A program made the position numbers and the translations under genes. From IMG/VR virus record IMGVR_UViG_3300015608_002806: a stretch of 57,815 nt of DNA. The stretch is one strand, 5' to 3'. This document shows positions 1,408 through 57,707 of this stretch, one piece after another. Each line of letters starts with the position of its first letter. Position 1 is the stretch's first letter. The DNA is from an uncultured virus (IMG/VR IMGVR_UViG_3300015608_002806) (lineage: Duplodnaviria > Heunggongvirae > Uroviricota > Caudoviricetes). A model generated the notes under the pieces. The model was not told where the DNA came from. It worked only from the letters and a program-made list of their open reading frames with translations, and ran no database searches.

Positions 1408-2176
1408 TTATTTATATGTTTTTATAATACATCTATAACTTGATTTATTGGTTAAAAACATATTTTTGATTTCAAAATCTTTTTCAATTTCTATATTTTC
1501 TTTATGGTCTCCAGTTTTGAATGAATTTAAATTATAAATATTGTTTATTTTATAAGATAAATCACAATAATTTTTTTCTAGAAAAATTTTAATCATTTAT
1601 ATTGCCTTACAAAACTACAGAAAAAATAATTTCTTTTTAAAATTTTTAATTCAAATTGTTGCCCGTTTGTTGTTTGATAAACATATAAACCTTTATAATA
1701 TAAAAATCCAATAAAATTCTTTTCTGCTCTAATAAGAATATTAGGTTGATTATTATTAATACTAATAAACATTAAAAATCCTTGTATATTTTTATTACAG
1801 TATTATATGAATTAATATCACGTAAATAACATCCAAAACTTGGCATTACAATAATTTCAAAACCTTGAGTAAAATAATGTATACAATATAATTTGTCGCA
1901 AAAAAATATTTCACAGAAATCTTTTGTTATTCGTATGTCTGTTCTGTTGATTTCTATAATTTTCATATTTTATACTTATTGTTCAGAATAATTTAAATTG
2001 ATATTATTTTTTGTATCATTATAAATACTTGGAAACCATTGGCGCACTGTTTCATCATAATATAGTATTGTTGAATGTAAATAGCTATGTTTTGATATAA
2101 TATAAATTTTATTTGCAATTGTCATTTCAACAAATTTTTTTGTTAAATTAATTCTAAAATAATTTGATTTATTCAT
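1408..2176 (-). CDS. Cluster of 4 mini-ORFs (1408-1596, 1593-1772, 1772-1966, 1976-2176)
   Basis: 59-66 aa, I/F/Y/K/N-rich with overlapping stop/start junctions. 1593-1772 (MFISINNNQPN...VRQYK) was hand-translated. Confidence 0.6.
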
Positions 2177-2190
2177 AATAATTTTATTAT

Positions 2191-2850
2191 TTAATCTTCA
2201 TTTGATAAATTAATATCAGGTTCAGGTGTATTGTTTTCTTTGGATTGATTTTTGTGTAGAATTTTTTTAACAGCCTTTTTAGCTGCTGTTTTTTGAAATT
2301 TATCTATTTCTCTTTTGACCAAAGAAAAATTAAACTTTAGAGCAGATTTATTAAATAATGCATCAAGATGTTTACATCCAATACCTTTAAGTTGTGGGTT
2401 TGTTATTGGTGATGGAATTTTTTGAAGGCTTACATCTGCTTGTTTTTGTGAGGCAGTATATGAATAATGATAATGAAATGATTTGCAGCTACAATAAACA
2501 CCCAAATCCCCAGAATACAATAAATCAGTTATTTCTTTTGAGTTTTTGCCTGAATTTACAAGATTTGGAACATTTTTCCATTCATAAAATTTTATGAATT
2601 GATCATATGTTTCATCTTGAGTTTCTTTCCACTCTTCTGAAGATTCATGCTGAAAATGCATTATTCCATTTTTAAATTCAATAAATGAAGGAAATTTATT
2701 TTTTTCCTTTTGCATGAAATCTAAATGATCTTGATGATGGTAAAAATTTGAGGATCTTTGATCTTTAAATTGTTTTGCAATATCATCAAACTTTAATTCA
2801 TTTAATGTATTTTTAATTTCTTTTCTTATTAATTTTTTTATTATGCTCAT
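2191..2850 (-). CDS. SWIM-like zinc-finger phage protein
   Basis: YCSCKSF...GCKHL (CxC...CxH) motif; N-terminal leader IKKLIRKEIKNTLNE. Confidence 0.6.
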   Translation of the reverse strand: MSIIKKLIRKEIKNTLNELKFDDIAKQFKDQRSSNFYHHQDHLDFMQKEKNKFPSFIEFKNGIMHFQHESSEEWKETQDETYDQFIKFYEWKNVPNLVNSGKNSKEITDLLYSGDLGVYCSCKSFHYHYSYTASQKQADVSLQKIPSPITNPQLKGIGCKHLDALFNKSALKFNFSLVKREIDKFQKTAAKKAVKKILHKNQSKENNTPEPDINLSNED

Positions 2851-3018
2851 ATTTTAATTATAAACCATATGTAAAATTTATATCATTTTTAGATATTAAT
2901 TTTACATATTTAAAATTTAATTCAAGACTAAAAATATTTGCACTTACACAAATACATTTATTAATTTTAGGCACAATATAACAAAACATTAAATCTTTTT
3001 GACGATGATAAATATTTG

Positions 3019-3675
3019 TCATAAATAAACCTTGATAATCTTGTTATTATGCCATATATGTTTTGAATATTTTATCCATTCATTTTTGGTTTCATTATTA
3101 TAATTTTTAATTTGGCACAAAAATTTATTATTTCCAAAAAAATTATAAACAATAAATGAATTAAGTTTTTTTGAAAAATATACAAATTGGATTGAGAATA
3201 ATTTACTTACTTGAATTGCAATCATTGTAATTTATATGTTTTTATATGGTGTAATTTGTTTAAAGAAAAAATTATATTATAATTTTTGTATAAAGAAATA
3301 TATCCAGCAGATTTATTTGTAATTGCTGTAATTCCAGGAAATTTTATTGTAATTTGTATATTTTTTATTTTAAATAAAAACAAAATATGTGAGTATTTAT
3401 AAATACTTATAGTCAAAGTATTTGTATACATTAATTACCTTATTTTTTGTATTTTCATTTTCTGAATGATTCGTCCAATCTAATATAGTACCATCATCTT
3501 GTTTTCTATAAGAAAGTATAGAAAACATTTTTTTTGGAAAAACAGATATAGTAATTTTATTTTTTACAAATATAACAAATTGAACAAAATTATAATTTTG
3601 GTGTTTGCCAATTTGAATAGCTAAAATATTATTTGTTGAAATTCCACTCACAAAACAATCCTTTTTGTTTGTCAA
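3019..3675 (-). CDS. Cluster of mini-ORFs (3019-3225, 3222-3431, 3397-3675)
   Basis: Overlapping junctions; 3019 and 3397 share AIQ...QFV.F.K. Confidence 0.55.
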
Positions 3676-5056
3676 TACAGTAAAAAGCTAATGCTTTATT
3701 GGAGGTTGTGTATCCATTTGTTTCATGCCATGAATCCGCTCCTGCTATTGATGGAACTTGAATTTGCATAACCCCTTGATTGTCTTTTATGTGTTTGTGA
3801 TGAAAATGACCTTGGAAGAAATAAACATATTTTGTTTGCGACCACAATTCTCTTGCCTCTTGTGCAATTATTAATGGCATATCATTTTTTCTTGCTCCGT
3901 GACCATGTGTAAAGCAAAGAAGCGTGTTTCCATATTTTTCATATGATCTTGTTGCAATTTTGATTGGTAGTTTTTCAAATTCTGAAATATTCTTTAAATC
4001 TCCAAAATATGTTTCAACGTTTGGATGATCTTTGTACCAAAAAGAAATCATTGTATATAGCGATATTGTTGAGTCACTATCGTGATTTCCTTTTGTTGGA
4101 ATTAGTTTAATCTTTTTTGACAAAAGGATTAATTTATCAATATAATTAACCATTTCAAATACACCAGAGACCAACATAAATGAAAACGTTGATTCTGAAT
4201 CTTGCTTTGTTCCTTTTGTTGTTTCATTTTTGGAAGAATCAACATGAAGGAAATCTCCACCAATTGTAAGATATGTTATTTCTGGTTTTCCGTTTTTTTC
4301 AATCTTGTCTTGTAAAAATATAATTGAATCACTTAATGATTTTTTAAGTATTGAAAAATTATGTTCATGTTCTGGTCCAACGTCAATTTTTTTTGAAAGT
4401 TTGCCCCAATGAAAATCTTGTAATGGAATTACCAATGCATATTCATCATTTTGAGAACTTTTTGGTGATTCTTCATTTTTTTCTTCATGTTGCTTATTAT
4501 AATTTTGTACTTTTTTTTCAAAAATTGGCAAAATTGAATTTAATATGGAGTTTTTAAATTTTCTCCATTTTTGAGCATCCTCTTTTAAAGATGCTTTTTC
4601 TTTATATTCTAAATTGTTAGATAAATTAAGATCTCTTAGTTCATCAACAATAGAAAATAGTTTTTCTGGTGTTAAATTCTGTTTTTGTTTAATGGTTACA
4701 GGTAAACCATCATGAGTTAAGTCATTTTCTTTAATAAAATTTCTAATTATTTCTTTTGGAAGATTTAGTTTTTTAGAAATATCAGAAATTGGTTTTGGCT
4801 TGCCTGCATAATCACTATACAGTGCAATAATTAATTTTTTCTGTTCATCAGTAAGAGATTCTTCAAGAAGTTTTGTATTTAAATAATGAGCTGGCGATTG
4901 TAGTGATGCTTTCTTAAATGTTCTTCTTAATGATCTTTCTGATATTGCCAATTTAGAACAAGCTTCTTTGACTGTTGCTGAATCTTTAAGTGTTAAAAGT
5001 GATTTTTCAATAAGATTATTAAATTTCTTTTTAATTGGTTGTTGTTTGCTATTCAT
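3629..5056 (-). CDS. HTH-containing calcineurin-like metallophosphoesterase (putative nuclease)
   Basis: DFHWG, GGDFLH, GNHD, HGH and GHFHH metal motifs; N-terminal HTH-like VKEACSKLAISERSLRR. Confidence 0.8.
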   Translation of the reverse strand: MNSKQQPIKKKFNNLIEKSLLTLKDSATVKEACSKLAISERSLRRTFKKASLQSPAHYLNTKLLEESLTDEQKKLIIALYSDYAGKPKPISDISKKLNLPKEIIRNFIKENDLTHDGLPVTIKQKQNLTPEKLFSIVDELRDLNLSNNLEYKEKASLKEDAQKWRKFKNSILNSILPIFEKKVQNYNKQHEEKNEESPKSSQNDEYALVIPLQDFHWGKLSKKIDVGPEHEHNFSILKKSLSDSIIFLQDKIEKNGKPEITYLTIGGDFLHVDSSKNETTKGTKQDSESTFSFMLVSGVFEMVNYIDKLILLSKKIKLIPTKGNHDSDSTISLYTMISFWYKDHPNVETYFGDLKNISEFEKLPIKIATRSYEKYGNTLLCFTHGHGARKNDMPLIIAQEARELWSQTKYVYFFQGHFHHKHIKDNQGVMQIQVPSIAGADSWHETNGYTTSNKALAFYCIDKQKGLFCEWNFNK

Positions 5057-5831
5057 TAGTCTCCTTTGCTGTTTTGATTAGATTAACCAAATCCAATCCA
5101 GCACAATCTATTCTATTTGGCATTAGATGATAATGACACATGATGCCTCTAAAAGAGCCATTGGCGCATTCTTTAATAAATTTTGTTTTATTTGGATGCT
5201 CTAAAGGAATGTCAAAAACATCAGTTAAAATTTTAATCAAAAAAGCCAAGGAATTTATTTGTTGTTCAAAAAATCCTAAATGATGCAAATTTATATTTTG
5301 ACATTTAGAATTCACTATTGGTCTGTTTTGTATTTTTTTGTATGCAATACTAAATGGATTTACAATATTTATTCCTATTGTTCCAACATCCCATGAAAAA
5401 CTTTTTGGAATATTAATTTGATTTTTAGTTAAAATTTTTCTATCTTCTTTTGAAGGACCAGAATGGAAAGCGATATATTGACAATCAACAAATTGATATA
5501 TTGTTCCATCTGAATCAATAGAAAAGTGCGTTGATGTTCTTTCCTCTGAAAGAATATTGTATGACGATATTGAGGATAAACAATTATCAGAATGAATTAT
5601 TATTGATGTTGGATGTCTTAAATATTTAGTTTTTAATTTTTGGAAACAATTATCAGGAAGAGGTGACCATATAATTTTTCTATTGATATAAATTTTTTCT
5701 TTGTTTGCTAATATAAAATACTCATTTTGATTTTTTTGTGTTCGTTTATTCGTTTCAGATGATGCAAAATTATGATTTTGAGATTTGTTAATTGGTTTAT
5801 TTAAAAATTTTTTTAACAAATTTACAATCAT
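5049..5831 (-). CDS. N-acetylmuramoyl-L-alanine amidase (Amidase_2-like)
   Basis: IIIH, STHFSIDSDGTIYQFVD, AFH, CHYH, DC. The usual SIGIE Glu reads TIGIN. Confidence 0.8.
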   Translation of the reverse strand: MIVNLLKKFLNKPINKSQNHNFASSETNKRTQKNQNEYFILANKEKIYINRKIIWSPLPDNCFQKLKTKYLRHPTSIIIHSDNCLSSISSYNILSEERTSTHFSIDSDGTIYQFVDCQYIAFHSGPSKEDRKILTKNQINIPKSFSWDVGTIGINIVNPFSIAYKKIQNRPIVNSKCQNINLHHLGFFEQQINSLAFLIKILTDVFDIPLEHPNKTKFIKECANGSFRGIMCHYHLMPNRIDCAGLDLVNLIKTAKETNE

Positions 5832-5848: not shown

Positions 5849-6272
5849 TTAATATTTTTTCACAAAACGATTATATTTTTTTGATGATTTTGTTTTTTGA
5901 ATAATTTGCATATCTTCTTGACAACACGGCCTATAAAAAGCATAAAGATTCTTGTTTAGAGTGACCACTGAAAAAATTGATAAATTTTGAAAATACACAA
6001 ATTGAAAATATTTTTTTTGAATCATTACAAAAATTTCTAATTTATTCTTCATATCCTTTTATTAATTGAGTATTTTTTGAGGCAATGTATCTTGTGCAAC
6101 AATCTTTTTCGTTAAAATATTTTGATTCATTAAAAAAATAATAAAAACCCCAACTACTTGGCCTTAACGAAATTAATCCATTGAAAGTAATGATAGTTTT
6201 ATTTTTAAAATAATAATAAAATGAAATTTCATTATATGAAATTTGAATAAATTTATTGTATGATTTCATCAA
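5849..6272 (-). CDS. Two mini-ORFs (5849-6052, 6042-6272)
   Basis: Family pattern IxIx...FYYYFKNK; overlapping junctions. Confidence 0.55.
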
Positions 6273-6873
6273 TTATTCCATGTTTTTTTGCTTGTTCTGC
6301 ATCAAAATAATAATGATGACCACCTTTTATTAATTTTTGAATCTTTGATTTTGTTAATTTTGTCAACGAGCAAATTGAATTTATATATTTTTCTTGTAAA
6401 AATAAATTTTCTGTATATTCAATTGAATTATGTGTTGCTGAACCACCTAAATCAAAAATTATTTCATGTATCATAAATCTTGTATTTGGCATTGAATATC
6501 TTTTGCCATTTGTCGCTGTTGACGCAATCAAAACGCCAGCACTCATAACTTTACCAAGACAAAAAACAGAAACATCCCGTGTTTTTTTTACAAAATTTAT
6601 TGCATCAACAATTGAAAACATTTCATGTACATCGCCGCCAACAGTTGACAGATAAATTTCTATGTCTTCCCCTGGTTCCAATTCTGAATTTGTAAGAATT
6701 AAACTTGATACAATGGACATTGATAATTTTTCATCAATTGCCCCAAAAATACCAATTTTATTGGAAATTTTTTCTTTATCAATTTTTAAAAAAACATTTC
6801 CTGTTAAATTTGAATTTTCTTCATCATTTTCTGATTCAAGTTCTTTTTTTTGTTTTTCGAGATTATGCACCAT
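6253..6873 (-). CDS. clpP: ClpP-family protease subunit
   Basis: YLSTVGGDV, VMSAG (Ser), RFMIHE (His), AEQAKKHGIIDEI; the triad Asp position reads His. Confidence 0.85.
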   Translation of the reverse strand: MVHNLEKQKKELESENDEENSNLTGNVFLKIDKEKISNKIGIFGAIDEKLSMSIVSSLILTNSELEPGEDIEIYLSTVGGDVHEMFSIVDAINFVKKTRDVSVFCLGKVMSAGVLIASTATNGKRYSMPNTRFMIHEIIFDLGGSATHNSIEYTENLFLQEKYINSICSLTKLTKSKIQKLIKGGHHYYFDAEQAKKHGIIDEIIQ

Positions 6874-6925: not shown

Positions 6926-7219
6926 TCAAATTCCAACCTTTGAAGCTAGAGCAATCAATTTTGATTTACATTTGTTTAATTCACCTAATGATTTACAATC
7001 CATTATATCTTTTCTTAACATTGCTGTATCGAGCGATAAATCAATCTTTTTTTCATTTGCTTTTGTTTCAACAGCTTGAACAGCATCAAGAAAGCCTAAT
7101 TTTGTAGCTTCATCAGCTCTTTTCCCTATTTTAATAAAATTATTTGTGGAATCTTTGATTATTTTATCAATTATTGATTCATTTAAAAAAAATGGGGTGG
7201 AAACATGATTTGCAACCAC
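6926..7219 (-). CDS. Hypothetical protein (start uncertain)
   Basis: 97-aa helical ORF whose 5' end lies inside a hairpin and T8 run. Confidence 0.5.
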   Translation of the reverse strand: MVANHVSTPFFLNESIIDKIIKDSTNNFIKIGKRADEATKLGFLDAVQAVETKANEKKIDLSLDTAMLRKDIMDCKSLGELNKCKSKLIALASKVGI

Positions 7220-7227
7220 CCCATTTT
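7185..7227 (-). terminator. 12-bp hairpin followed by T8 (terminator or translational operator)
   Basis: AAAATGGGGTGG (7189-7200) / CCACCCCATTTT (7216-7227) perfect inverted repeat. Confidence 0.6.
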
Positions 7228-7248
7228 CATCTATATTATAATTTTTTG

Positions 7249-7731
7249 TTATTGTTTTTTTTTAGAGTTTACTTTTGAAATAAAGCCCTTGTTCTTAAGG
7301 GATTCAAATACAGATTCGACAATTTTTTGCGAGACTTCTTTTGACTCCATCATTGGAGGCTCATCGTTATCTAAACCGCCATCATCAAAATCATTTGGCT
7401 CATCCATTGAAGAATCAACTGTATGAACAGCATCTTGTCCAAATACTTGTGCAAAAGCAGCAGAAACAGCAGCTTGTATTTCTGATTCTAGCTGATCAAC
7501 ATCTACATCCATTGAATCTTCATTGGTTTCTTCTTCTGTGTCAAGAAGAGTAGAATCATCAACCAATAAATCACTTGATTCTGGTGGTGTATTTGCACTT
7601 GGCGCATCCAAATCGTCAAATGATTCTTTGAGAGGTTTTTTATTTTTTGACATAAAATGATCTTTATAAGAATCATTTCCTGCTAATTCCATGAATCTTT
7701 CAATTAAACTGTTTTGATTTTTATTTTTCAT
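7249..7731 (-). CDS. Acidic putative prohead core/internal virion protein
   Basis: ERFMELAG motif, LKES/MMES/IVES sites, very acidic; paralog of the next ORF. Confidence 0.55.
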   Translation of the reverse strand: MKNKNQNSLIERFMELAGNDSYKDHFMSKNKKPLKESFDDLDAPSANTPPESSDLLVDDSTLLDTEEETNEDSMDVDVDQLESEIQAAVSAAFAQVFGQDAVHTVDSSMDEPNDFDDGGLDNDEPPMMESKEVSQKIVESVFESLKNKGFISKVNSKKKQ

Positions 7732-8161
7732 TTCTTTTTCCTGATTTTGAAAGCGAAAGTTTGTTTCTTTTCATTTGCTCGACAATTTTTTTAGTAAATT
7801 TTTTGGCAAGCTTTGATTCAAGTGTTGGTTCGGTATTACTGTCTTCAACATCTGCATCAACAGTACCAGAACCAAATTTATTGTTAAAAACATTGGCAAC
7901 TTCATCAGTAATTGCTTTAATTAAAGCACCAACGTCAACTTCTGATTTTGGAAGAACTTTTGATTCGTGTTCAAGCTCTTCTTGTTCTGGAGTTTCTTCC
8001 ATTTCGTGAGAAACAGGTTCATCTAATTCACTTTCTGAATCGTGTAGAACTTCACGGTCTTCTTGTTCAAAATTTTCTTTTAAAACTTTCTTTTTAAATT
8101 TATCAAGACCAGCAAGTTCCATTAGTCTTGAAATATGATTTGTTTTATTAGGTTTTGCCAT
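7721..8161 (-). CDS. Acidic putative prohead core/internal virion protein
   Basis: SRLMELAGL motif, LKEN/LES/IVE sites. Confidence 0.55.
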   Translation of the reverse strand: MAKPNKTNHISRLMELAGLDKFKKKVLKENFEQEDREVLHDSESELDEPVSHEMEETPEQEELEHESKVLPKSEVDVGALIKAITDEVANVFNNKFGSGTVDADVEDSNTEPTLESKLAKKFTKKIVEQMKRNKLSLSKSGKRNEK

Positions 8162-8225
8162 TATTTAAGATTTCCCCTTGGAATCAATATAATTATCAAA
8201 AAGAAATAAAAATTAAATTTTTTTA

Positions 8226-8537
8226 TTAATTATTTGAATTTTCTTTTATAGATTCATCTGATAAATCAGCAGAATTTTCAATAATATCATTGTTTAATAT
8301 AGTTTTTGTTTCTCTTATTTGATTAAATCTCATTTGCATTTTTTCTGTGTATTTCCTATTTTGTAATGAATTTATGTATATTTTAACAAATTCTTCAGAA
8401 ATTTCTGAATTTTCAATAAATTGTTTCATAAAATATTCCAAAAATGAAGTTGGTGTAATTCTATATGAATTACATTCTAGCCAAAATTCTCTAAAAAGAT
8501 TTTTATCTACAACAAGATTTGTTTTATTGTTTTTCAT
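8226..8537 (-). CDS. Hypothetical protein (possible ribbon-helix-helix)
   Basis: Strand-helix-helix pattern TNLVVDKNLFREF...TPTSFLEYFM. Confidence 0.5.
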   Translation of the reverse strand: MKNNKTNLVVDKNLFREFWLECNSYRITPTSFLEYFMKQFIENSEISEEFVKIYINSLQNRKYTEKMQMRFNQIRETKTILNNDIIENSADLSDESIKENSNN

Positions 8538-8543: not shown

Positions 8544-9620
8544 TTACTTTCTTAAGTAAATATGAGGAGTTCCTTCAATGTGTCCACTGTTGGAAACAAT
8601 ACAAAATTCACAATTTTCTTGAAAATCTAATAAATTCAAGCATCCTGAGTATGAAAAGCCTGATTGTATGCCTTTATGAAGTGAACTTAACACTTTTTCA
8701 AGTTTTCCAGTGTATTTTACTTGTGCAGAAACACCCTCTGCTCGAATTTCTTTTTTACCTGCTGCAATTTGAGCAGCTTCGGATGCTGCTCCTCTATATG
8801 CCTTAAACCATCGTCCTGAGTCATCTTGAATGATGCTGCCTGGAGAGGCTTTTGTTCCTGCCAATAGCGAACCCAACATGACAAAATTGGCACCAAAACC
8901 TAAAGATTTGCAAATATCCCCCGAGTTTTTAATACCACCGTCAGCAATTATTGATTTTTGTGGATTTTTATCAATCCAATTTTCAGATATTTCAATCAAA
9001 GATGACGCTAATGGCATACCATGACCTGTTTGTATCTGTGTTGAACAACTTGCTCCAGAACCAATTCCAACTCTAATTGAATCTGCTCCATTATCAATTA
9101 AAAATCTAAATCCGTCATATGTAGCAACATTTCCGGCCATTATATGATGGTGTGGTTTTAGTATTTTTTTTAATTCAAGAATTGCATTTTTTGCATTTGA
9201 ATGATGGCCGTGCGCAATATCAACACAAATAATTTTAACATTTTTGTTTTTAATTGCTTCTTGTGTTCTTTCTAGAAAATCACCAGATACACCAACCGCA
9301 ACTCCAAAAATTGATTCATTTGTTGATTCTTTTTCTACTATTTCTTGAGCTAATTTTAATTCACTACACATCCAATCAATAGATTTAAATCTATGAAGAA
9401 TACCAAGCCCCCCATTTATACACATCCTGCCAAGCATTTGGTGCTCTGTAACTGTATCCATACAAGAACTAATAATTGGTATTTTAAATTTATATTGTGT
9501 ACCGTTTTCTGAATAAAGACAGGATGATGTATCAACTTGTGATCTTGAAGGGATTTCAGAATATTTTGGAATGATTCTAAAATCATCAAATGATTTAAAT
9601 TCATGTTTATTGATTTTCAT
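8544..9620 (-). CDS. IMP dehydrogenase/GMP reductase family enzyme, no CBS domain
   Basis: SFDD, MDTVTE, VDIAHGH, AGNVAT, RVGIGSGASCST (catalytic Cys), IIADGGI, VMLGSLLAG, EGV; no Arg-Tyr flap dyad. Confidence 0.92.
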   Translation of the reverse strand: MKINKHEFKSFDDFRIIPKYSEIPSRSQVDTSSCLYSENGTQYKFKIPIISSCMDTVTEHQMLGRMCINGGLGILHRFKSIDWMCSELKLAQEIVEKESTNESIFGVAVGVSGDFLERTQEAIKNKNVKIICVDIAHGHHSNAKNAILELKKILKPHHHIMAGNVATYDGFRFLIDNGADSIRVGIGSGASCSTQIQTGHGMPLASSLIEISENWIDKNPQKSIIADGGIKNSGDICKSLGFGANFVMLGSLLAGTKASPGSIIQDDSGRWFKAYRGAASEAAQIAAGKKEIRAEGVSAQVKYTGKLEKVLSSLHKGIQSGFSYSGCLNLLDFQENCEFCIVSNSGHIEGTPHIYLRK

Positions 9621-9637: not shown

Positions 9638-10384
9638 TTATTTAATCTTTTTTCCATTTTTCCAATATTCTTGTTTTATTATATTTCCATTTTGATCATA
9701 TTCAATATAAGCAGGACCATTATCGTTATGACGGTCCCCATTTATAAACCATAATTTATATGAAACATTTCCATTTTCATAATATCGAATATAAGCAGGA
9801 CCATTATCGTTATGACGTTCACCATTTATCCACCATGCTTTATATAAAACATTTCCATTTTGATCATATTTAATATAAGCAGGACCGTTTTCATTATGAT
9901 ATTTGTCGTCTATATACCATTCTTGGTATTTAATATTTCTATTTTCATAATATTCAATATAAGCAGGACCATTTTCATTATGACGTTTACCATTTATCCA
10001 CCATGATTTATATGCAACATTTCCATTTTGATCATATTTAATATAAGCAGGACCGTTTTCATTATGATATTTGTCATCTATATACCATTCTTGGTATTTA
10101 ATATTTCTATTTTCATAATATTGAATATAAGCAGGACCATTCTCGTTATGGAATTTACCATTTATACACCATTCTTTATATTCAACATTTCCATTTGGAT
10201 GATATCCAATTTGTGTTGGCTTATTTTCTTCTTCATCCTTCAATGAATCAATTAATTCATTTTCTGGTTTGTTTTCACTCAAAAGATTTAATGTTGTTTT
10301 AATAATTGAAATTTGTTTATCTGATGATAAATTGTTTTCTGTTTCGTTTAAAAAATATTGAATCCATTTATTTAAATTGTTCAT
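9638..10384 (-). CDS. MORN-variant-like repeat protein, six 28-aa HN(E/D)NGPA units
   Basis: Start placed at 10384 (MNNLNKWIQYFLNE; RBS AAGGAAACAAAATG) by homology with its two paralogs. Confidence 0.85.
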   Translation of the reverse strand: MNNLNKWIQYFLNETENNLSSDKQISIIKTTLNLLSENKPENELIDSLKDEEENKPTQIGYHPNGNVEYKEWCINGKFHNENGPAYIQYYENRNIKYQEWYIDDKYHNENGPAYIKYDQNGNVAYKSWWINGKRHNENGPAYIEYYENRNIKYQEWYIDDKYHNENGPAYIKYDQNGNVLYKAWWINGERHNDNGPAYIRYYENGNVSYKLWFINGDRHNDNGPAYIEYDQNGNIIKQEYWKNGKKIK

Positions 10385-10394
10385 TTTGTTTCCT

Positions 10395-10616
10395 TTATTT
10401 AATCCTATATGTTTTTTTAAATTCTTTTTTAGTTGAATAATCATTTATAACATTTAAATAATCAAAAATATGATCTCTATCATATGTAATACAATCTCTT
10501 AAATTAGAATCACTCCATGTTCTAAATAAAATATTAAATTTCGTGTTTGTAAAAATAATTGCAGCAAAAATATATTCTTTACTTCTTATATCAATTATCA
10601 TTTTTATTTGATTCAT
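10395..10616 (-). CDS. Mini-ORF family member
   Basis: 73 aa with alternating hydrophobic strands; overlaps the upstream gene. Confidence 0.5.
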   Translation of the reverse strand: MNQIKMIIDIRSKEYIFAAIIFTNTKFNILFRTWSDSNLRDCITYDRDHIFDYLNVINDYSTKKEFKKTYRIK

Positions 10617-11109
10617 ATTTTTTCTTTAATTTTTCATATATTTCAAATTCATTTTCATTTTCAATATTTGAAATTTCTTCAATATATTTTTGTCTATTTT
10701 TCTCATATTCAATTTTCTTAAGTTTATAATTTTCTAAGTTTTTTAAATAAATTTTTTCTAATTCAATTGATTCTTTTGTTTTTTTGTTGGAGTAAATTCT
10801 AAACATCATTGATCCATTATCAAAATCATGATATTCATCCTTTGAAAAACAAATATACAATTTATTGTTTTGATCTTTAAGATATTCATTGATTGTGCGA
10901 ATGTCTTGAGTTGCTATTTCTGTTTGTTGATAATATAAATTTAAAATATCAATTTTCATTGAGAATAATTCTTCACATTCAATCAATGGAGCAATTGGTG
11001 GATGTAAATCCATATAATTTGGATTAAAATACAATGGTAAATCCAATTTTTTTATAATTTTTTGATGAATTTCATTAGAAACATTTATTGAAATTTTTTT
11101 ATTTTTCAT
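10591..11109 (-). CDS. Hypothetical protein
   Basis: 172-aa ORF with a charged C-terminal helix. Confidence 0.65.
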   Translation of the reverse strand: MKNKKISINVSNEIHQKIIKKLDLPLYFNPNYMDLHPPIAPLIECEELFSMKIDILNLYYQQTEIATQDIRTINEYLKDQNNKLYICFSKDEYHDFDNGSMMFRIYSNKKTKESIELEKIYLKNLENYKLKKIEYEKNRQKYIEEISNIENENEFEIYEKLKKKYESNKNDN

Positions 11110-11370
11110 AATAAAACCTTTATAGTTGTATTTATTTCACAAATTTTGAAAAAATTAATCCATGCTGGAAGATGTTTTTTTAGAAATTGTGTTATTTCTG
11201 TAACTGAATTTGTTTTAAATGCTGTTTCAATATTTGAAGTTTTTCCTGGTAAAAAAATAAGGAAATCCATCACCATAATATATGTCATAAAATGCAACAT
11301 AATCTCCAACTACATAATCCAAACAATTCTCAGCACACATCAAACAATACTTTGTTATATTATTGTTCAT
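11106..11370 (-). pseudogene. Small gene apparently frameshifted at a T7 run (11251-11257)
   Basis: The frame from ATG 11370 (MNNNITKYCLMC...GFPYF) stops early; removing one T joins it to LPGKTSNIETAFK... Confidence 0.4.
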
Positions 11371-11887: not shown

Positions 11888-11913
11888 TTATTGTTATGTT
11901 TCCTTATTAATGA

Positions 11914-46486: not shown

Positions 46487-46514
46487 TTTATTTAAGTTAT
46501 TGTCTTGTTTTAAT

Positions 46515-47250: not shown

Positions 47251-48569
47251 TCCTTCTTATAGAAGCATTTGATATAATCCTTTAAACAAAAATTAGAATC
47301 ATTAATAAAACTTTTCATTTGATCTAATGAGTATGTTTGTATCATCACCTCGTTTACATATTTTACATGTAACACAATAAAACTTCTAGGTAGAAAATCA
47401 TAATATACTCTGTAATTATTTCGAGTTAAAACTATTTGTATCATCATCATATGTTTGTATAATTAAAATTGTGTTATGCAATGATTTATTAAGTGGTTTT
47501 GTATATCTTTCTAATTTTGTCAAATTATCTTTCGTGATTAAGCTTTTATTTAAATGAAGTAATTCATAAAAAATTATATAATAATTTTTTCTTAAACTAA
47601 GGAAGATCATTGCATACCAATTTTAATTGTGCAGATTATATGATAATTAATATTTGTTATAAATATATCTTATATGATATTTTGATTTGATATTTTTGTT
47701 TGTTGTTGTATAAAACACTTCAGAAAGATTATAAATTTCGATATTTGTTTTTTTGTTTTTAGAGTTTAATTTATCAATTAAAATATCTAATGATTTGTTT
47801 GAGAAAATAAATACTATTATAGTATATAAATTTTTATCTATTGAAATTTTTAACATTTTATTGATAATTTTTTATCATTATAAATTTATTATTTTTCTCA
47901 CAAGCCATTTGTATATAATTAATTAATGTCTGATATGTTCTAGTTTTATTAGAATTAATTATTATAATTGAATGAAATATTTTTCCAATGTTTAAAATGT
48001 CATAATAAAGAAAAATTTCAGTATTGTTTTTTATTTCCAAACTAAGCATATTAGTTAATATCTTTTTTGAATGGAGCAATGAACCAATTAGTTTTAATTG
48101 GGAGTTCATTTTCTTTAACTTCAATTGAAAACAAATCAATTCCATTTGATGGAACATTTGACATTGCTGGGAATAATTTGTTAATAATTGAAGTTAAATC
48201 TTTATATTCTAAAGATGATGTATCGCCATATTGTTTGATTTGAGCAATTACGTCTGAAATAAGAGAGAAGAGAGTTTGGATTTCGTAATCAGAAAATTTA
48301 ATTGATGTATTTGACATATTAACTTAACTCCAATATGGAAATTTTATTGCTTGATTTGATAAATAAAAATATTTATTTATATCTATATTATTTATTCTTA
48401 CACAAGAATATCCAGATTCAAAAATAAAAAATCCAATAACTTTATTATTTATTTTAAATACAGAACAAATAGAAAGTGGAACATAAGAAATATTTTTATG
48501 TCTTATATAAATAAATTTGTTTATCTTTTTTTTATTTTTCCAAAATAAGAATTTTTTATATATTTTCAT
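47247..48569 (-). CDS. Mini-ORF cluster plus one 88-aa hypothetical (48051-48317)
   Basis: MIFLSL/MLKISI/MLSLEI starts, YY(D/E)(F/I/L)L motif. Confidence 0.55.
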
Positions 48570-49793: not shown

Positions 49794-50201
49794 TTATTTA
49801 ATTTTTTTTCCATTTTTCCAATATTCTTGTGTTATTATATTTCCATTTTGATCATATTTAATATAAGCAGGACCATTATCGTTATGACGTTTATTGTTTG
49901 TCCACCATTCTTTATATGAAACATTTTCATTTGGATAATATCCAATACCAGCAGGACCATTCTCATTATGTAATTTATTATTTATCAACCATGCTTTATA
50001 TTTAATATTTCCATTTGGATAATATTCAATTTTTGTTGGCTTATTTTCTTCGTCCTTCAATGAATCAATTGATTTATTTTCTGGTTTGCTTTCATTTAAA
50101 AGATTTAAAACACCTTCAATTATCAAAATTTGTTTATCTGATGATAATATGTTGTTTGTTTCATTTAAAAAATATTGAATCCATTCATTAAAATTATTCA
50201 T
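49794..50201 (-). CDS. MORN-variant-like repeat protein, two units
   Basis: Third paralog, with a closely similar leader, the same RBS as the 10384 copy and a QEYWKNGKKIK end. Confidence 0.85.
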   Translation of the reverse strand: MNNFNEWIQYFLNETNNILSSDKQILIIEGVLNLLNESKPENKSIDSLKDEENKPTKIEYYPNGNIKYKAWLINNKLHNENGPAGIGYYPNENVSYKEWWTNNKRHNDNGPAYIKYDQNGNIITQEYWKNGKKIK

Positions 50202-50710: not shown

Positions 50711-51283
50711 TTAAAATTTTTGTTTAACAATATCCCAAATAAATTCTGCAATTTGCTCTATTGATTGATTGGCATTTATTTCAATCCAATTATTTTGTTT
50801 TCCATATTCTTGATGTGTTTTTTGTACAAAATCAATTAATTCATTGTTTTGTTCGTGTTTGTGATTTGATTCTCTTGAATCAAGAAATCTGTTTCCAACA
50901 AGCAAAAATGCAATGTCTTCTTTTAGAAGATTGGAATTGATTTGTTTAAGAAAATTTTCATCAACACCTGTTGAGATTCCCCAACAAATGCCTGTCCCAG
51001 TATAATCTTCAGCTACAATGTGTGTAGTTTTTAATTTATTAATTAATGTTTCTTGATACTGAACTCTATCAAGAACATACAGCAATTGAGCTTCTCTTGT
51101 TGAGAGATTAAATGGATTGTTGTGTCTTAGATAATCATTAATTAATTTGCCAAATGGTTTTTCCTCATAATGAGGATATTTAATGTATTCAGCTTTTAAG
51201 CCTTCATTTTTTATTTTTTCAACAAGTAATTTAGCTTGAGTGCTTTTGCCTAAATTATTTATTCCATATATAGTTATGAACAT
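50711..51283 (-). CDS. tmk: Thymidylate kinase
   Basis: GINNLGKSTQ P-loop, KYP, LYVLDR, AEDY at the DRY position, HE in the lid. Confidence 0.8.
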   Translation of the reverse strand: MFITIYGINNLGKSTQAKLLVEKIKNEGLKAEYIKYPHYEEKPFGKLINDYLRHNNPFNLSTREAQLLYVLDRVQYQETLINKLKTTHIVAEDYTGTGICWGISTGVDENFLKQINSNLLKEDIAFLLVGNRFLDSRESNHKHEQNNELIDFVQKTHQEYGKQNNWIEINANQSIEQIAEFIWDIVKQKF

Positions 51284-52822
51284 ATTTTCTTTCTTTCTTC
51301 TTGAGTTAAATATTTTTTTAAAATTTCTTTTTCTAAGAAATATTCCTTTAATGAAGGATATGTTGAAGAATAAAATTTCATATAAGAATTATTCATGTAT
51401 AAATAATGAAATTTATTTGATAATAAAAAACTAATTTCAAATTCAAAATAATCATTTTCAATATACACTTCAATCATGATAATTTTTCCTGATAGAATCA
51501 ATCTCATTTGCAATGTATGAAATTGGTAAATTGCCTATATAATTCATGATATTGAAATTAAATTTAAAAGTAACAAAACTAAAATAAAATTGAACCTCTT
51601 TTTGTTTTTTTGGAGTCATAAAATAACAAAAAATATATTTTTTTCTTTTTAAAATTAATTTAATCATCTTAATTTATTTCTTTTATTTCAATTGTGTGAC
51701 CAAAACCAGAATAATCAACTGGATTATTCAATAAATTCTTGTTCTTAATTGCCAAAGAAGCAGAACCAAGCCATTTTTCCGCACATTTGTGTGCTTCTTC
51801 ATAAGAATCAAATTGATCTACATTGGTCAGATTCCACTTTTTTAGAATTTCAAAATCAACAATCCCGCCATTATCGAAAATTAAGTACATGGTAGTATCC
51901 GTATGATTTAACAAGTGATTGTTGCTGACTGTAATGTGTTGGTCGGCTATTTATCCAGCCACCATCTTTAAGAAAACTGTATACGTTTGTATCACGAGAT
52001 CTTAGTTTTATAGAGGATGTTTTGGTATTAATATGAAATAATGAATCTAATTCTATCTCTGCTAAGATTATTTTGAATTTCTTTCCATTTTTAAAATGGA
52101 ATAAAAATAAAATAGTTACACAACTATCATCAGAATCTGAAAAATTTTCAATAAAAATCATTATTGTTCTCGTATTTTGTAAAATGTAATTTGTCTTTTG
52201 TGAATCGACATTGATTGTGAATTTTTTGATTTTTCCATGCAAACTTCCATCTTTCAAACATATCTATCGCAAATGGATAAATTGTAATTTTATTATTAAT
52301 TGCAATAAACTTCTTATCCTTAAGAACGAACAATATTGTTGGCAAATATTGTGTTAAAGTTTCAAATCTTAAAAAAATCATATTAAATTATATTATTGTG
52401 TTAATATTTGAATAATAGTGTTTCATTATTTGAAATGAAATCATTCCAACTTCTTTGCGAAGAGTGATTAGGAATTAAAATTGATAGGTGTTGCAAATTA
52501 ACGTGAAGTTCTTTTTTGTTAAAAAAATATACAATTGTAATAGTGTCATGAAAATAAAACCGTGAATTAAAGATTCTAATGAATGTGTTATGCATATATT
52601 TTAATATTTTTTGATTAAGTAAATTTTTTGTTCTTTAAAAGAATCATTTGCAAAATGATAATTATATTTTGTTATTATTTCATTAAAATCAATTTTTTTG
52701 TTTGAAAAATTGATTTTTGATTGTTTTCTATTATTATAATAAATTATTGACATCAATTTTTTTGATTTTTCAATTGCAAATATAATTTTTTTTTCTGTCA
52801 GTGAAACTGATACAAATATCAT
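51274..52822 (-). CDS. Mini-ORF cluster plus an 81-aa hypothetical (51669-51914)
   Basis: MIFLRF/MIFVSV/MIFIEN starts, TI(L/V)(F/Y).. and K.KK turn motifs. Confidence 0.55.
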
Positions 52823-53364: not shown

Positions 53365-53544
53365 TTACTTGATTGTTCCGCAAACGGTGCATCGTGCGCC
53401 CTTTTCACAAAAGTTAAAAACCCTCATTCCATTTCCATGTTTTTCATCTTGATATTTATTTTCACATTTGCAAGATGAAATTTTGCTACCACTATTTGAT
53501 TTCTTTGATTTGTCTGATGTTGTTGTTTGAGTCTTGTCTGACAT
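53365..53544 (-). CDS. Small zinc-ribbon protein (59 aa, not in the ORF track)
   Basis: CKCENKYQDEKHGNGMRVFN...RCTVCG; AGGAG RBS. Confidence 0.7.
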   Translation of the reverse strand: MSDKTQTTTSDKSKKSNSGSKISSCKCENKYQDEKHGNGMRVFNFCEKGARCTVCGTIK

Positions 53545-54276
53545 TTCTGTTTCTCCTATTGATTATTTTGTTATTGATTTAATCAAGAAATTTAAATTTA
53601 TTTTTTAATTAGTCACTTAAATTGATTTTTACAGTATCTATATCTTTTGAAACATTTTGTAATTTAGAATACAATTCTATAGAAAGCAGACAATAATTTT
53701 TACAATCAAAAATAATTCTTAAATCTTTAAGATTTTTAGAAGTTTTTGATTTAAATGTGTAATAAATATAATTTTTAGATGAAAATTTATGAAGAATAAT
53801 ATCAATCATAATAAATTTTCCTAATTTCATCAAAATTTATTCTTAAATCTTCTAAAACATACTTTCTAGATGAAAGAATAAATGAATAATATAATTTAGA
53901 AAAAGATTGAGAAGAAGTTATTTTTGATAAAATTTCTTTTTTGTCTGAAACTTTAAAAAATAAAAGAATTCTATTTTGTTTTTCTAAAATAATTTCAATC
54001 ATTTTATTAATTCAAATCCGGTTGTGAAACAGGAATGATATAATTTGCATTGTATCCAGCTTTAATAAACTTTTTTGCTGTTAAATACAAATCACTCTCT
54101 GTATTAAACAATTCAAAAAAATTCATTGTTGTTGAAATGGCATCATTGAGATAATTATTAGGAATGCCAAGCAAACGCATTTGCATTCCAATCAACATAA
54201 AAATCCTTTCAGTCAATTCATCAGGAAGGGTTGTCATATATATTTGTTCCTTTAATTTTGAATTATTCGCAGTTTA

Positions 54277-55210: not shown

Positions 55211-55667
55211 AGACTTTTATTTCCACCTTTTCAAATTCAGATCTTGAAAAATGTTTCACAAATAAATTTTTAACATCTTGCCAATTCAATCCACCAAGAC
55301 CACAACCCAATGCAGGAAATGCATAGGATAGATCTTTTAATCCAGGAATTGCTAAAATATCATTGGACAATTTCTCCAAACCACAATCAATATCGTTTAA
55401 ATTTGAATCATTTGATGGATGGTATTTTGTATGAAAACAAATAATTATATGTTGTTCATTGTTGTCAATTCTTTTATCACAAAAAATATTATAATATTTG
55501 TTTGTTGCATTATTATCACAAATATTTTTATATTCTTTGTACATTTTTGGAAACATTTTTTTAAATGTTAAAGCAATTCCTCCACCCATAATACCAACCT
55601 TATTTGTTGCGTTTACTAAAACATTGCAATTTGAATTAAAAAGATTGCCATTAACAAAAGTTAACAT
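55197..55667 (-). CDS. Macrodomain (ADP-ribose processing; DarG/Poa1-like)
   Basis: GNLF...LVNATNKVGIMGGGIA..FK..FP, TK.H, FPALGCGLGGL.W; start placed at MLTFVNGN. Confidence 0.88.
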   Translation of the reverse strand: MLTFVNGNLFNSNCNVLVNATNKVGIMGGGIALTFKKMFPKMYKEYKNICDNNATNKYYNIFCDKRIDNNEQHIIICFHTKYHPSNDSNLNDIDCGLEKLSNDILAIPGLKDLSYAFPALGCGLGGLNWQDVKNLFVKHFSRSEFEKVEIKVYEPI

Positions 55668-55686
55668 GATATTTCCTTTATGTGTT

Positions 55687-56725
55687 TCAATACACAATTT
55701 GAGCTACATTGTTATATACATAATATGCTGGAGTATAACAATTGATACGATCTGAATATGAGAATTTATTGTAGTAAGTATTAACAAATATTTGTTTGTT
55801 TTTAAAGTAATACCAAAACATAATATCATTTATTTTAGAAGTAAAAATAATTATATTATTCATTATTTTCCTTAGAATACATAATTTCAATTTTGTATTT
55901 ATAATATGTTGGAGTATAATAATCGATATAATTTGAATCTGAATATAATAATTTATTGCTGTAAGCATTAACAAAGATTTCCTTGTTTTTAAAGTAATAC
56001 TAACAACAAATGTATTTTATTTGTTTAATTTTATAAATTGCTACATTGGTCATATTTTTTTTATTCATAAATTATTCTTATTTTATCAAAATATTTTTTC
56101 TGATTATTTTTTTCAATATTGCCAACGTATTTTTTGTACTCGAATGTTTCATTTACAATGTCGTTAATAATATTATTTTTTGGAAAAACATAATAAACTG
56201 CAACTTTAGTGTCTTGTTTATTTATGATGTTATAATAATTTTCAATTATGATTAAAATTAATTTATCCATATTTAATACATCCATTTACCAATACAACTG
56301 GTTGGTTTTGATCTGATTCTGTTGCATATTCAATATTCCATGATTCAACATTAATATAATAAGATATCTCTAATCCATTTTTAATTTTTGGTTTTTTAGA
56401 AATTTTTAAATAAATTTTATCTTTTAATGAACTGTCTTTGCTTACAATCCATTTAAAGAATTGCCCTGATTCTAGATCGCAAAAATAAATTTGATTACTC
56501 ATAAAGTTTCCAAAAAATATTGGTGTTTTTGAATGATGGTTTTTTGTAATAATAAAAATCAAGTATATTATATTTGTATTCTAATTTGTCTAAAATAACA
56601 GAAACCATATTATTTGTTTTAATTTTATAAAAAACTTGAGGTCTAAAATTTTTATTTACGTAAATTAAAATCATAGTATTAACAAATAATTCCGATTGAA
56701 ATAATTTCACATGGCTTATTTTCAA
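55687..56725 (-). CDS. Mini-ORF cluster plus a 99-aa hypothetical (56263-56562)
   Basis: YYFKNKQ units; TTGTTTTTAAAGTAATAC occurs twice (near 55796 and 55983). Confidence 0.55.
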
Positions 56726-57113
56726 TAAGCTCTAATGAGTGATATGTTAAATCTGTTCTAAACAGAATAGCATCTCCTTCGTTCAAAAGACATACTTGCT
56801 TACCTGGGCACATAATACATGAATTATGTGTAACAATATTTAATCTAAAATGCTTTGTTTCATTGTTAATTGGATCTATATGGTTTGGAATGTCGGATTG
56901 AATTTTTAAATGCCAGCAATCAAGAAAATTATAATGATAAAAAAATCTTTGAATTTCTTTTATATAAGAATTACCTATAGTACATTTCTTCTTTAAATAA
57001 AGACCGTTTTGTCTTCCCAATTCATATTGTGAATTAATATTCAACTCATAATCTTCTAATTGTTTTTTGCTTAAAAGATTTTCTAAAAATAAAAATTCAT
57101 TTTCTTTTAACAT
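56679..57113 (-). CDS. 2OG-Fe(II) oxygenase-like protein
   Basis: IPNHID (HxD), RLNIV, FRTD..YHS. Confidence 0.65.
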   Translation of the reverse strand: MLKENEFLFLENLLSKKQLEDYELNINSQYELGRQNGLYLKKKCTIGNSYIKEIQRFFYHYNFLDCWHLKIQSDIPNHIDPINNETKHFRLNIVTHNSCIMCPGKQVCLLNEGDAILFRTDLTYHSLELIENKPCEIISIGIIC

Positions 57114-57707
57114 TTGTTAATCCTTTTTATATGTATAAAGTTGTTTTTTAGAAATATGAGAGTTAATATTTAGCCAAGATGTGTCATTCATTATGTCATT
57201 TTTCAAAAATTTAAATTCATTATTTTATAAATAATTATTTATAAAATAAATAGAGAAATATAATTTTATTAATTTTTTAGGATCGTCAATAGAATATATA
57301 CACTGATAAGAAAAACCATGTTTTGATTTAGCAAAATAAGTTTTAATCATTGTTAATATTTTCTTTTTAAATAAGGAAAAGACATTTTATAAAAATCAAA
57401 TTTGTAATCATCTATTATTAAAAATTTATTATTTTTTATTTCAATATTGTTATTATTATCTAAAGTTGTTTTTATTTTTAATTGTTTGTTTTTAAAATTT
57501 AAATATACAAAAATTCCTAAGCCAAAATTTCCAGGATTTCCAATAAAAAAATAAATCATTTTCTAAATCCAGGATTTGATTTTTTAAAATTTTCAATTTT
57601 TGTTTTTTTTATTTTTTCTTGTTTTTGTTTATTTGTTTGCACTTTAGTCTCTTTTTCTTTTGCAATTTAAACATTTAAATGACAATTTGTTAAAATTGTA
57701 ACAATAT

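Follow-up and report, generated by a model that had tools for sequence, protein, structure and literature searches.

Small orphan genes, most of them unexplained, are known to be numerous in large phages. For T4-type phages, Arbiol et al. (2010, PMC2839356) describe hyperplastic regions (HPRs), clusters of orphan genes located between conserved modules, and the shuffling of these genes by recombination between cassettes made of a promoter and a stem-loop (PeSL cassettes). We analysed a stretch of 57,815 nucleotides (nt) from an uncultured virus of the Caudoviricetes (IMG/VR record IMGVR_UViG_3300015608_002806), hereafter the window, in which a chain of open reading frames (ORFs) at positions 1408-57559, entirely on the minus strand, intersperses small ORFs of 45-110 amino acids (aa) among larger genes. 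The reading that we favour, and hold to be moderately probable, is that the 89 small ORFs are genuine genes, about half of which form one fast-diverging family that grew in tandem and likely provides host-binding accessory proteins. Their expansion looks like a sizeable instance of something big phages are already known to do, now with one new protein of ~60 residues.

The window resembles the T4-type HPRs in its many small, non-conserved genes placed between the conserved blocks of a large lytic phage, in the presence of rIIA, rIIB and gp47-like genes, and in a small-gene content that varies between relatives (contig L046 versus the window, see below). It differs from them in that about half of its small genes look like one family and not like unrelated ORFans, in that these genes are mostly coupled head to tail by stop/start overlaps, and in that they are distributed over 24 of the 34 junctions between larger genes instead of a few regions. 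ORFan clusters and PeSL cassettes in T4-type HPRs were reportedly also treated by Comeau et al. in 2014. We found no equivalent of such a cassette in the window: outside coding paralogs there was no repeated intergenic DNA family of ≥24 nt, promoter-like sites were not in excess (155 versus 149.2 ± 14.2 in shuffled sequence), the junctions showed no consensus beyond ATGA and a weak Shine-Dalgarno (SD) sequence, and only two of the nine terminator-like sites lay on the coding strand. An earlier sequence-only reading of the window had considered that the small ORFs might be a 'selfish mini-gene', an idea left without support, as the search for a conserved DNA cassette at the flanks or a motif at the junctions found neither.

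The chain comprises 135 ORFs, of which 89 have 45-110 aa (77 of them 55-95 aa), 45 are longer and one is shorter. The small ORFs span 19,056 of 56,152 nt, and 91% of the chain is coding. The coding strand of the 34 segments that separate the larger genes contains 73 ORFs of ≥50 aa, compared with 16 on the antisense strand and with 7.0 ± 2.6 in 200 dinucleotide shuffles (maximum 13). A codon-usage model trained on the large genes, in which stop codons were ignored, ranked the annotated frame first for 77 of 90 small ORFs versus 2 of 81 plus-strand ORFs. Of the 134 junctions, 62 are overlaps, including 23 of the ATGA type (-4), 4 of -1, 13 of -8 and 6 of -11; SD-like sites were detected upstream of 15 of the 89 small ORFs versus 27 of 44 large ones. 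Judged from these sequence features, the small ORFs are real, translated-looking genes. The sequence-only reading had proposed more than 60 tiny ORFs on the coding strand, coupled by ATGA or other short overlaps, with frames open by translation and not by chance; the counts, the junctions, the codon usage, the excess over shuffles and the frames kept open despite divergence (see below) bear this out. It had also placed one to five small ORFs at most boundaries, which holds for the occupancy (24 of 34 segments) but not for the range, since occupied segments contain from one to nine.

We counted four motifs in the unselected set of 89 small ORFs and in 1000 composition-preserving shuffles. Three of them lay above every shuffle: an N-terminal strand of alternating hydrophobic residues (49/89 versus 31.0 ± 4.3), a hairpin with an N/K turn (29/89 versus 13.0 ± 3.2, starting at residues 13-22 in 13 of the 29) and a Tyr within the last three residues (46/89 versus 19.3 ± 3.8, and only 2 of 45 large proteins). 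The fourth, a regular expression for an aromatic strand, was not enriched (19/89 versus 22.6 ± 4.0), and 17 of the 89 ORFs carried none of the three enriched motifs; the loose pattern described from sequence alone thus survives as a strand, a hairpin and a terminal Tyr shared by a subset, without its aromatic strand. As far as codons and junctions can tell, the C-terminal Tyr is a protein-level feature: it is as common ahead of gaps longer than 15 nt (14 of 23 ORFs) as ahead of overlaps, and both TAC and TAT serve as its codons. The possibility that it mainly reflects a signal in the DNA (an overlapping ATG, or a box resembling TATAA) was considered and rejected; at some of the -8 and -11 overlaps (13 + 6 junctions), however, a Tyr or Asn codon is imposed by the overlap. 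Residue 2 is enriched in Ile as well (32/89 small versus 7/45 large ORFs), partly because ATGA overlaps force Ile, which is found in 10 of 19 ORFs with such an overlap versus 5 of 24 after long gaps. Chou-Fasman propensities favour beta over alpha structure in 76 of 89 small ORFs and 19 of 45 large proteins, in line with their initial description as beta-rich. Net charge is positive in 74 of the 89, with a median of +4 versus 0 per 65 residues in large proteins; this basic character stems from fewer Asp and Glu residues, without any recognisable binding motif.

About half of the small ORFs look, from their sequences, like one lineage-specific family, for which our best count is 47 and the defensible range ~30 to 58. 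Alignment A1 was built from 45 small ORFs chosen by the three motifs. In a leave-one-out fit, in which an ORF had to beat 95% of its own shuffles (p<0.05), 37 of the 45 aligned and 10 of the 44 unaligned small ORFs fitted, versus 2 of 100 fragments of large proteins. Profiles from disjoint left-half (33 ORFs) and right-half (19 ORFs) sets aligned in register over their first 26 columns, with an hhalign score of 18.0 (P 0.0018) versus 7.3 for reversed and 5.0 ± 1.0 for shuffled columns, although both this comparison and the count of 47/89 are partly circular because members were picked by the same motifs. Half-versus-half window profiles made without selection still separated real ORFs from shuffles (area under the curve, AUC, 0.65 and 0.71) and from reversed sequences (0.62 and 0.69); 8 of 42 and 10 of 41 ORFs in the held-out halves outscored the 95th percentile of the shuffled set. 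Likewise, phmmer found 61 matches of real with real sequences versus 16 of real with shuffled ones at E<0.01, and 276 versus 139 at E<0.1. Identity within the family is low, ~15-25% to the first sequence of each alignment.

The signal appears to be particular to this lineage. As a control we used 50 kb of CP220, a Campylobacter phage of similar base composition (27.6% G+C), where the profile fitted 2 of 12 small ORFs, a small sample in which none started with MI; in four relatives it fitted 1 of 9, 1 of 25, 2 of 24 and 1 of 17. The profile fits 49 of the 89 small ORFs of the window, and CP220 and the four relatives have none at 8 bits. These low fits speak against a purely compositional origin of the pattern. 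Among the large proteins of the window, the family profile gave only a marginal match, to the N-terminus of 42639-43004 (E 0.045), and no kinship with MORN-like proteins emerged (profile E 3 on 11914-12411, with 9638-10444 and 49794-50201 absent from the matches; Pfam MORN_2 hit these three larger ORFs only).

The tandem member 22949-23137 provided the best structural model. Using a 33-row alignment that contained left-half ORFs only, AlphaFold2 predicted strands at residues 2-6, 10-18, 21-28 and 35-40, a helix at 43-53 and a final strand at 58-60 bearing the conserved Tyr, with a predicted local distance difference test (pLDDT) of 93.6 and a predicted template modelling score (pTM) of 0.75. 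For 42997-43173, modelled with a 45-row alignment, strands were placed at 2-6, 12-19, 22-29 and 36-41. According to these models, the chain is predicted to form a four-stranded antiparallel beta meander, to which a short helix and then a short final strand are added. The proposal of a beta-rich mini-scaffold is supported by both models; the same four strands in the two members, which are distant from each other, agree with a common fold, the helix and last strand being present in one of them. The single-sequence ESM Atlas model of 22949-23137 reached a pLDDT of only 0.53, as against 93.6 with paralogs, so that the fold signal comes from the paralog alignment. When the alignment is mapped onto the model, every strand contains hydrophobic columns, the first turn has an Asn and the C-terminus shows Phi-x-K-x-Y. 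Since the first strand runs from residue 2, it accounts for the M-I-x-I-x-(I/L/V) start, just as the last strand carries the Phi-x-K-x-Y-x end; strands at both chain ends would thus explain why both termini are conserved, and these two strands may pair with each other. A lone sheet of this kind, hydrophobic on its two faces, would be expected to self-associate.

No solved structure matched this fold convincingly. Foldseek returned best E values of 0.56 in the PDB and 0.34 in BFVD for the 42997-43173 model and of 0.47 in the PDB for that of 22949-23137, and VIA-align gave the latter Z ≤5.9 in both modes, inside its stated background. The family profile (A2) had 0 matches at E≤1 among all PDB sequences, and the ESM Atlas yielded unnamed clusters only, with scores compatible with chance and no usable feature match.

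The distribution of similar copies points to growth mainly by tandem duplication with occasional relocation. At phmmer E<1e-3, significant pairs were 7 of 175 at an index distance ≤2 versus 2 of 3741 among distant ones (Fisher p=1e-8). The tandem copies are a triple at 22756-23326 (38-51% aa identity, the first two copies being 75% identical in nt) and four pairs at 24367-24749, 21193-21592, 43997-44373 and 30651-31042, whereas 42997/55687 and 52401/40222 are the distant pairs. Tandem DNA repeats of 75-81% identity were found at 22755-23138, 24429-24742 and 55750-56022. At 55937-56022 there is what appears to be a partial or decayed tandem duplicate of a family member: a direct repeat of 86 nt (81% identity, spacing 187) that overlaps the N-terminally extended portion of 55687-55974.

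The ratios of nonsynonymous to synonymous divergence (dN/dS) obtained with the NG86 method were 1.14, 0.95, 0.88, 1.52 and 0.92 for five tandem pairs (dS 0.19-0.68), the four least diverged of which lie at 0.92-1.52, and 0.58, 0.61, 0.24 and 0.77 for older pairs, whereas the window's MORN-like paralogs (dS 0.28-0.36) gave 0.52-0.67; NG86 ignores the third-position A+T bias, which makes the absolute values unreliable and leaves the weight to the contrast with the MORN-like genes. When neutral mutation was simulated up to the observed divergence, only 4.7%, 8.7%, 0.8% and 1.1% of the copies remained stop-free, whereas all nine paralog pairs compared have open frames. Thus, the frames seem to be under selection while their residues change fast, which would mean that production of the protein is selected for, with relaxed or diversifying selection acting at its surface. 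The sequence-only reading had described fast-evolving ORFs that duplicate locally, disperse and resemble their neighbours most; the tandem and distant copies, the young-pair ratios (0.88-1.52) and the lack of homologues in the searches that follow agree with it on each of these points.

None of the small ORFs scanned belonged to a Pfam or PHROGs family, and 0 of 87 to an NCBIfam one. A word-indexed search of 5.8 billion proteins retrieved, apart from the ORFs of the window itself, just two strain variants. One of them (P0006, of 19004-19201) spans the full length and differs at 5 of 65 residues. The other (P0004, of 22949-23137, from another assembly) is 82% identical with a C-terminus 9 residues longer, a difference pointing to an indel, or to recombination, within the tandem triple beside ThyX. 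No match at E≤1 was obtained by tblastn of 22949-23137 against 50,697 phage records. The ThyX of the window has relatives at 68-75% identity, three of them (P0010, P0011 and P0018; 71-75%) on contigs of 59-140 kb. Scans with the PurA/PurZ-like protein found relatives of only 40-51% identity, scans of a viral contig collection with rIIA and with an AAA ATPase found none, and an annotated phage collection contained no close relative, the best match of PolIII alpha being 31% identical. One window protein is also on record from a contig of 181,815 bp. A literature search gave no relevant account of small paralog families in jumbo phages.

The family seems to turn over. In the single 13-kb relative that could be compared (L046; 32% G+C), ThyX is 70% and the PurA/PurZ-like protein 49% identical to those of the window, yet the family appears absent and other small ORFs occupy these junctions, with 24008-24316 as the only one having a homologue there; small-gene content at matching junctions differs in the one relative where this was checked. 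More distant relatives (L001, L017, L024, L010, L006 and L012; PurA/PurZ-like proteins 45-50% identical, ~40% G+C) carry head-to-tail arrays of a different family of 62-93 aa with an M-K-P-G-D-L-V-like N-terminal motif, for which we counted 16, 14, 7, 5, 3 and 3 profile hits, respectively. These arrays resemble the window in their head-to-tail small ORFs near the same nucleotide-metabolism genes and differ in being compact, not dispersed, and in belonging to ~40% G+C genomes. The two families showed no relationship (hhalign probability 0.0; best window small ORF at E 1.7). The presence of arrays in both the window and its distant relatives suggests that small diversifying gene arrays are a habit of this phage group, the window's own family seeming specific to the AT-rich lineage. 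The M-K-P-G-D-L-V-like family totals 49 profile hits in 7 loci, with the L001 array at 16429-19727 (+), and matches no Pfam family at threshold.

Several results weigh against the existence of a single family covering half of the small genes. Pairwise comparison (BLASTP and phmmer, E<1e-3) resolved only seven clusters, six pairs and one triple; iterative hidden Markov models (HMMs) seeded from each ORF joined at most four real ORFs and sometimes drew in decoys; a Gibbs motif search of the small ORFs did not converge (held-out AUC 0.50-0.56); and the profile of the 45 aligned ORFs recovered from 1.84 billion representatives, at E≤1e-3, only one of its own members, 52401-52595. The residues I, K, N, F and Y, which have A+T-rich codons, are each more frequent in small than in large proteins, so the beta-rich look is partly compositional. 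Two of the older pairs have lower dN/dS (0.24 and 0.58), the model of 42997-43173 is moderate (pLDDT 71.5) and lacks the helix and last strand, the AlphaFold2 input consisted of paralog alignments of our own making, and the function is derived purely from context. Much of this would be expected if only the tandem clusters were true paralogs and the remaining weakly constrained mini-proteins had drifted at 25% G+C towards hairpins rich in I, F, Y, K and N, which also arise in shuffles (13.0 of 89 with an N/K turn). Nevertheless, composition-preserving shuffles and reversed sequences scored lower than the real ORFs, the hairpin begins most often within residues 13-22, the terminal Tyr distinguishes small from large proteins and uses both of its codons, AlphaFold2 confidence rises when paralogs are aligned, and CP220, at nearly the same G+C content although with few small ORFs, had no fit of at least 8 bits. 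We regard convergence as unlikely. The opposite extreme, proposed by the sequence-only reading, is that practically every one of the >60 small ORFs belongs to one superfamily with one scaffold, a diversified library of binders. The three motifs are each enriched across the unselected set, most small ORFs are beta-prone (76/89) and basic (74/89), and the 10 unaligned ORFs that fit the profile exceed the ~2 expected; but all-versus-all comparison and iterative HMMs do not go beyond four ORFs, 42 of the 89 do not fit the profile, 17 lack all three motifs, few held-out ORFs exceed the shuffles (8/42 and 10/41), and at least eight are of other kinds (three Cys-rich, two membrane-like and three acidic). 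That claim does not stand in this form, and we judge it improbable: by sequence comparison the small genes are not all one superfamily, the other ~40 being Cys-rich, membrane-like, acidic or unclassified.

The family members might instead be nucleic-acid-binding proteins and not protein binders. Units of the PC4, Whirly and PUR types consist of a four-stranded sheet plus a helix and pair up to bind single-stranded DNA or RNA. The window family shares with them the predicted order of elements (four antiparallel strands, then a helix), a small size, a basic charge and aromatic-rich strands, its genes lie among replication genes, and Pur-alpha appears among the weak structural matches. However, it has an extra C-terminal strand, the Pur-alpha matches (3k44, Z 4.4, 38 residues aligned, root-mean-square deviation 2.0; 3nm7, Z 3.9, 41 aligned) involve the sheet only and remain inside the background, below the best unrelated ones (Z 5.1-5.9), no such family was matched by sequence profile (no Pfam match at E≤0.01 for the small ORFs scanned), the charge comes from a scarcity of acidic residues without a binding motif, and tens of diversifying copies would be unexpected for a housekeeping role in DNA binding. 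We find such a function quite improbable. Finally, many of the small ORFs could be decaying remnants or chance frames carried along in operons, in agreement with dN/dS near 1 in young pairs, the lack of homologues elsewhere, the scarcity of SD-like sites (15/89 versus 27/44) and the decayed partial duplicate at 55937-56022. This is highly improbable given that open frames are about ten times as many as in shuffles, codon usage is frame-specific, genes are tightly tiled at 91% coding density, neutral divergence would have closed most copies, and the strain variant P0006 is full length despite five changes.

Under the reading of a tandem-grown family, a basic lineage-specific protein of ~60 residues would have expanded by tandem duplication and occasional relocation, its copies changing amino acids about as fast as silent sites while their frames were held open. 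Being coupled to genes of early or middle type, the small genes would be co-produced with them, and their products would act stoichiometrically by binding macromolecules of the host, or possibly of the phage, as accessories for host takeover or counter-defence, and any duplicate could drift towards a target of its own. Early accessory proteins directed at host targets are probably the most likely role in view of the coupling, the small size, the absence of a catalytic motif, and a scaffold that appears stable while its sequence changes fast.

The window (~25% G+C, 0.21-0.37 per 2 kb) belongs, by its gene content, to a large phage genome, of which it represents the region for replication and nucleotide metabolism. 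When its 136 translated ORFs were scanned against Pfam and PHROGs, the larger genes listed in Table 1 were recognised, among them a phage-encoded IF3, a ClpP-type protease and a GroEL-type chaperonin; a dCMP deaminase, an AAA ATPase, a SpoU methylase, Tmk and a Macro domain were identified too. We ruled out that an alternative code (code 4 with TGA as Trp, or a recoded TAG) splits the genes: GroEL, PolIII alpha (997 aa) and rIIA (799 aa) are full length under table 11 and the IMPDH/GMP reductase is matched over 345 of 345 profile positions, so the standard code holds, and most of the excess of TGA among the stop codons (43 of 140) can be attributed to the 23 ATGA overlaps. The small ORFs fall into 47 that fit the family profile, 11 that are aligned without significant fit and 31 others (n=89).

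Table 1. Small ORFs and larger genes of the window, in order of position. Small ORFs are sorted as fitting the family profile, in the alignment without significant fit, or other (including those without family fit).
Feature	Coordinates	Strand	Fit	Aligned, no significant fit	Other	Basis or remarks
GroEL	3-1385	-				Pfam/PHROG
Small ORFs	1408-2176	-	1408-1596	1593-1772, 1772-1966	1976-2176	
Small ORFs	2858-3675	-	2858-3022, 3019-3225		3222-3431, 3397-3675	
gp47-like exonuclease	3629-5056	-				Pfam/PHROG
Amidase	5049-5831	-				Pfam/PHROG
Small ORFs	5849-6272	-	5849-6052, 6042-6272			Between amidase and ClpP
ClpP	6253-6873	-				Pfam/PHROG
Small ORFs	6926-8537	-			6926-7219, 8226-8537	Two larger ORFs in between
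IMPDH/GMP-reductase-like enzyme	8544-9620	-				Pfam/PHROG
MORN-like paralogs	9638-10444, 11914-12411, 49794-50201	-				N-terminal region in common
Small ORFs	10395-12611	-	12408-12611	10395-10601	11106-11309	Isolated among MORN-like paralogs
dUTPase	12601-13092	-				Pfam/PHROG
Small ORFs	13093-14033	-	13295-13495, 13488-13661, 13658-13849, 13842-14033	13093-13287		Five coupled ORFs between dUTPase and PolIII alpha
PolIII alpha	14030-18834	-				Pfam/PHROG; split by intein halves and endonuclease ORF
PolIII alpha, third ORF	14030-17023	-				C-terminal intein region and remaining polymerase
Homing-endonuclease-like ORF	16995-17948	-				Inside PolIII alpha locus
PolIII alpha, first ORF	17998-18834	-				PHP domain and N-terminal intein splicing region
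Small ORFs	18831-19201	-	18831-19007, 19004-19201			ATGA-coupled
Small ORFs	20115-22092	-			20115-20396, 21585-21863, 21826-22092	Larger ORF 20486-21196 in their midst; tandem pair 21193-21417 / 21389-21592, phmmer E 2.6e-7
ThyX	22094-22729	-				Pfam/PHROG
Small ORFs	22756-23326	-				Three tandem paralogs of 61-62 aa: 22756-22944, 22949-23137, 23141-23326
IF3	23329-23805	-				Pfam/PHROG
Small ORFs	23807-25453	-	23807-24007, 24958-25227, 25220-25453	24746-24961	24008-24316	Seven ORFs between IF3 and PurA/PurZ-like; tandem pair 24367-24522 / 24519-24749, E 4.7e-12
PurA/PurZ-like synthetase	25450-26508	-				Pfam/PHROG; 352 aa
Small ORFs	26501-27789	-	26966-27178, 27396-27575		26501-26722, 26725-26973, 27175-27399, 27646-27789	Six ORFs
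Small ORFs	28351-29222	-	28351-28596		29046-29222	29046-29222 Cys-rich, two CxxC; 140-aa ORF in between
rIIB and rIIA	29410-33824	-				Pfam/PHROG
Small ORFs	30430-31421	-	30430-30654, 30651-30848, 30848-31042, 31230-31421			Between rIIB and rIIA; 30651/30848 pair E 2.6e-5; iterative HMM seeded from two of these ORFs joined 4 ORFs
Small ORF	33834-34115	-			33834-34115	93 aa, without family fit
AAA and VWA proteins	34836-39447	-				Pfam/PHROG
Small ORFs	37912-38227	-	37912-38121		38087-38227	38087-38227 of 46 aa, membrane-like
Small ORFs	39490-41448	-	39490-39654, 40011-40229	40222-40422, 40412-40621	39654-39881, 40685-40888, 40892-41113, 41079-41252, 41254-41448	Nine ORFs; 41079-41252 membrane-like; 41254-41448 Cys-rich, two CxxC
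Small ORF	41811-42137	-			41811-42137	108 aa, without family fit
Small ORF	42997-43173	-				58-aa member; significant distant paralog of 55687-55974
Small ORFs	43698-44667	-	43997-44194, 44188-44373		43698-43985, 44476-44667	Tandem pair 43997-44194 / 44188-44373, E 4.2e-7; 44476-44667 acidic
Small ORFs	45197-46082	-	45197-45364, 45543-45722, 45719-45910		45939-46082	
Plus-strand island	45376-46547	+				ORFs 45384-45593 and 46004-46486 (160 aa, no Pfam family); promoter-like site 45376-45403 (11/12); strong terminator-like hairpin 46515-46538
Small ORFs	47247-48569	-	47247-47450, 47416-47610, 47647-47856, 47858-48157		48324-48569	
Small ORFs	51274-51914	-	51274-51477, 51470-51667		51669-51914	51669-51914 acidic
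Small ORFs	52401-52822	-	52401-52595	52601-52822		52401-52595 distant paralog of 40222-40422
Small ORFs	53365-54237	-	53609-53809, 53802-54002		53365-53544, 54007-54237	53365-53544 Cys-rich; 54007-54237 acidic
Small ORFs	55687-56562	-	55687-55974	56061-56270	56263-56562	True start of 55687-55974 probably a later ATG
Small ORF	57353-57559	-	57353-57559			68-aa member

Among the other small ORFs, the three Cys-rich ones are unrelated to the main family; 41254-41448 has a weak match to the DnaJ CXXCXGXG domain (E 0.0013), below threshold. The PolIII alpha locus consists of three ORFs, with 49 nt between the first two and a 29-nt overlap between the last two, and resembles a fractured or split intein whose endonuclease gene stands alone. 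The PurA/PurZ-like synthetase scores below the NCBIfam cut-offs of both PurA (225 versus 402 bits) and PurZ (119 versus 300 bits), its best PHROG being a PurZ-type family; together with the IMPDH/GMP-reductase-like enzyme, dUTPase, dCMP deaminase, ThyX and Tmk it may constitute a candidate modified-purine (2-aminoadenine) pathway worth testing. In the three MORN-like paralogs (68-72% aa identity), 84-nt tandem repeats encode MORN-like beta-hairpin units, all their Pfam MORN_2 matches being below threshold. The plus-strand island is the only convincing one on the opposite strand of the window.

At 25% G+C, composition alone gives small proteins a similar look, so that claims of superfamilies in such genomes need controls with shuffled sequences, reversed sequences and other phages. 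If about half of the small genes of the window are indeed one family, duplication and drift of a permissive scaffold would be a route to new accessory proteins, as opposed to capture or de novo birth. A stronger version, in which a beta4-alpha-beta scaffold invented by this lineage and present in ~50 copies, about a fifth of the 58-kb region, serves as a constantly renewed library of binders against host proteins or defences, with a sheet closed by the first and last residues and with all copies held open as their surfaces evolve at nearly the silent rate, is in our opinion rather unlikely; if true, it would be akin in logic to immune-receptor or effector arsenals and undescribed for phages at such a scale. 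The family would in any case offer, if real, ~50 natural variants of one tiny fold that could be screened for host targets or anti-defence activity.

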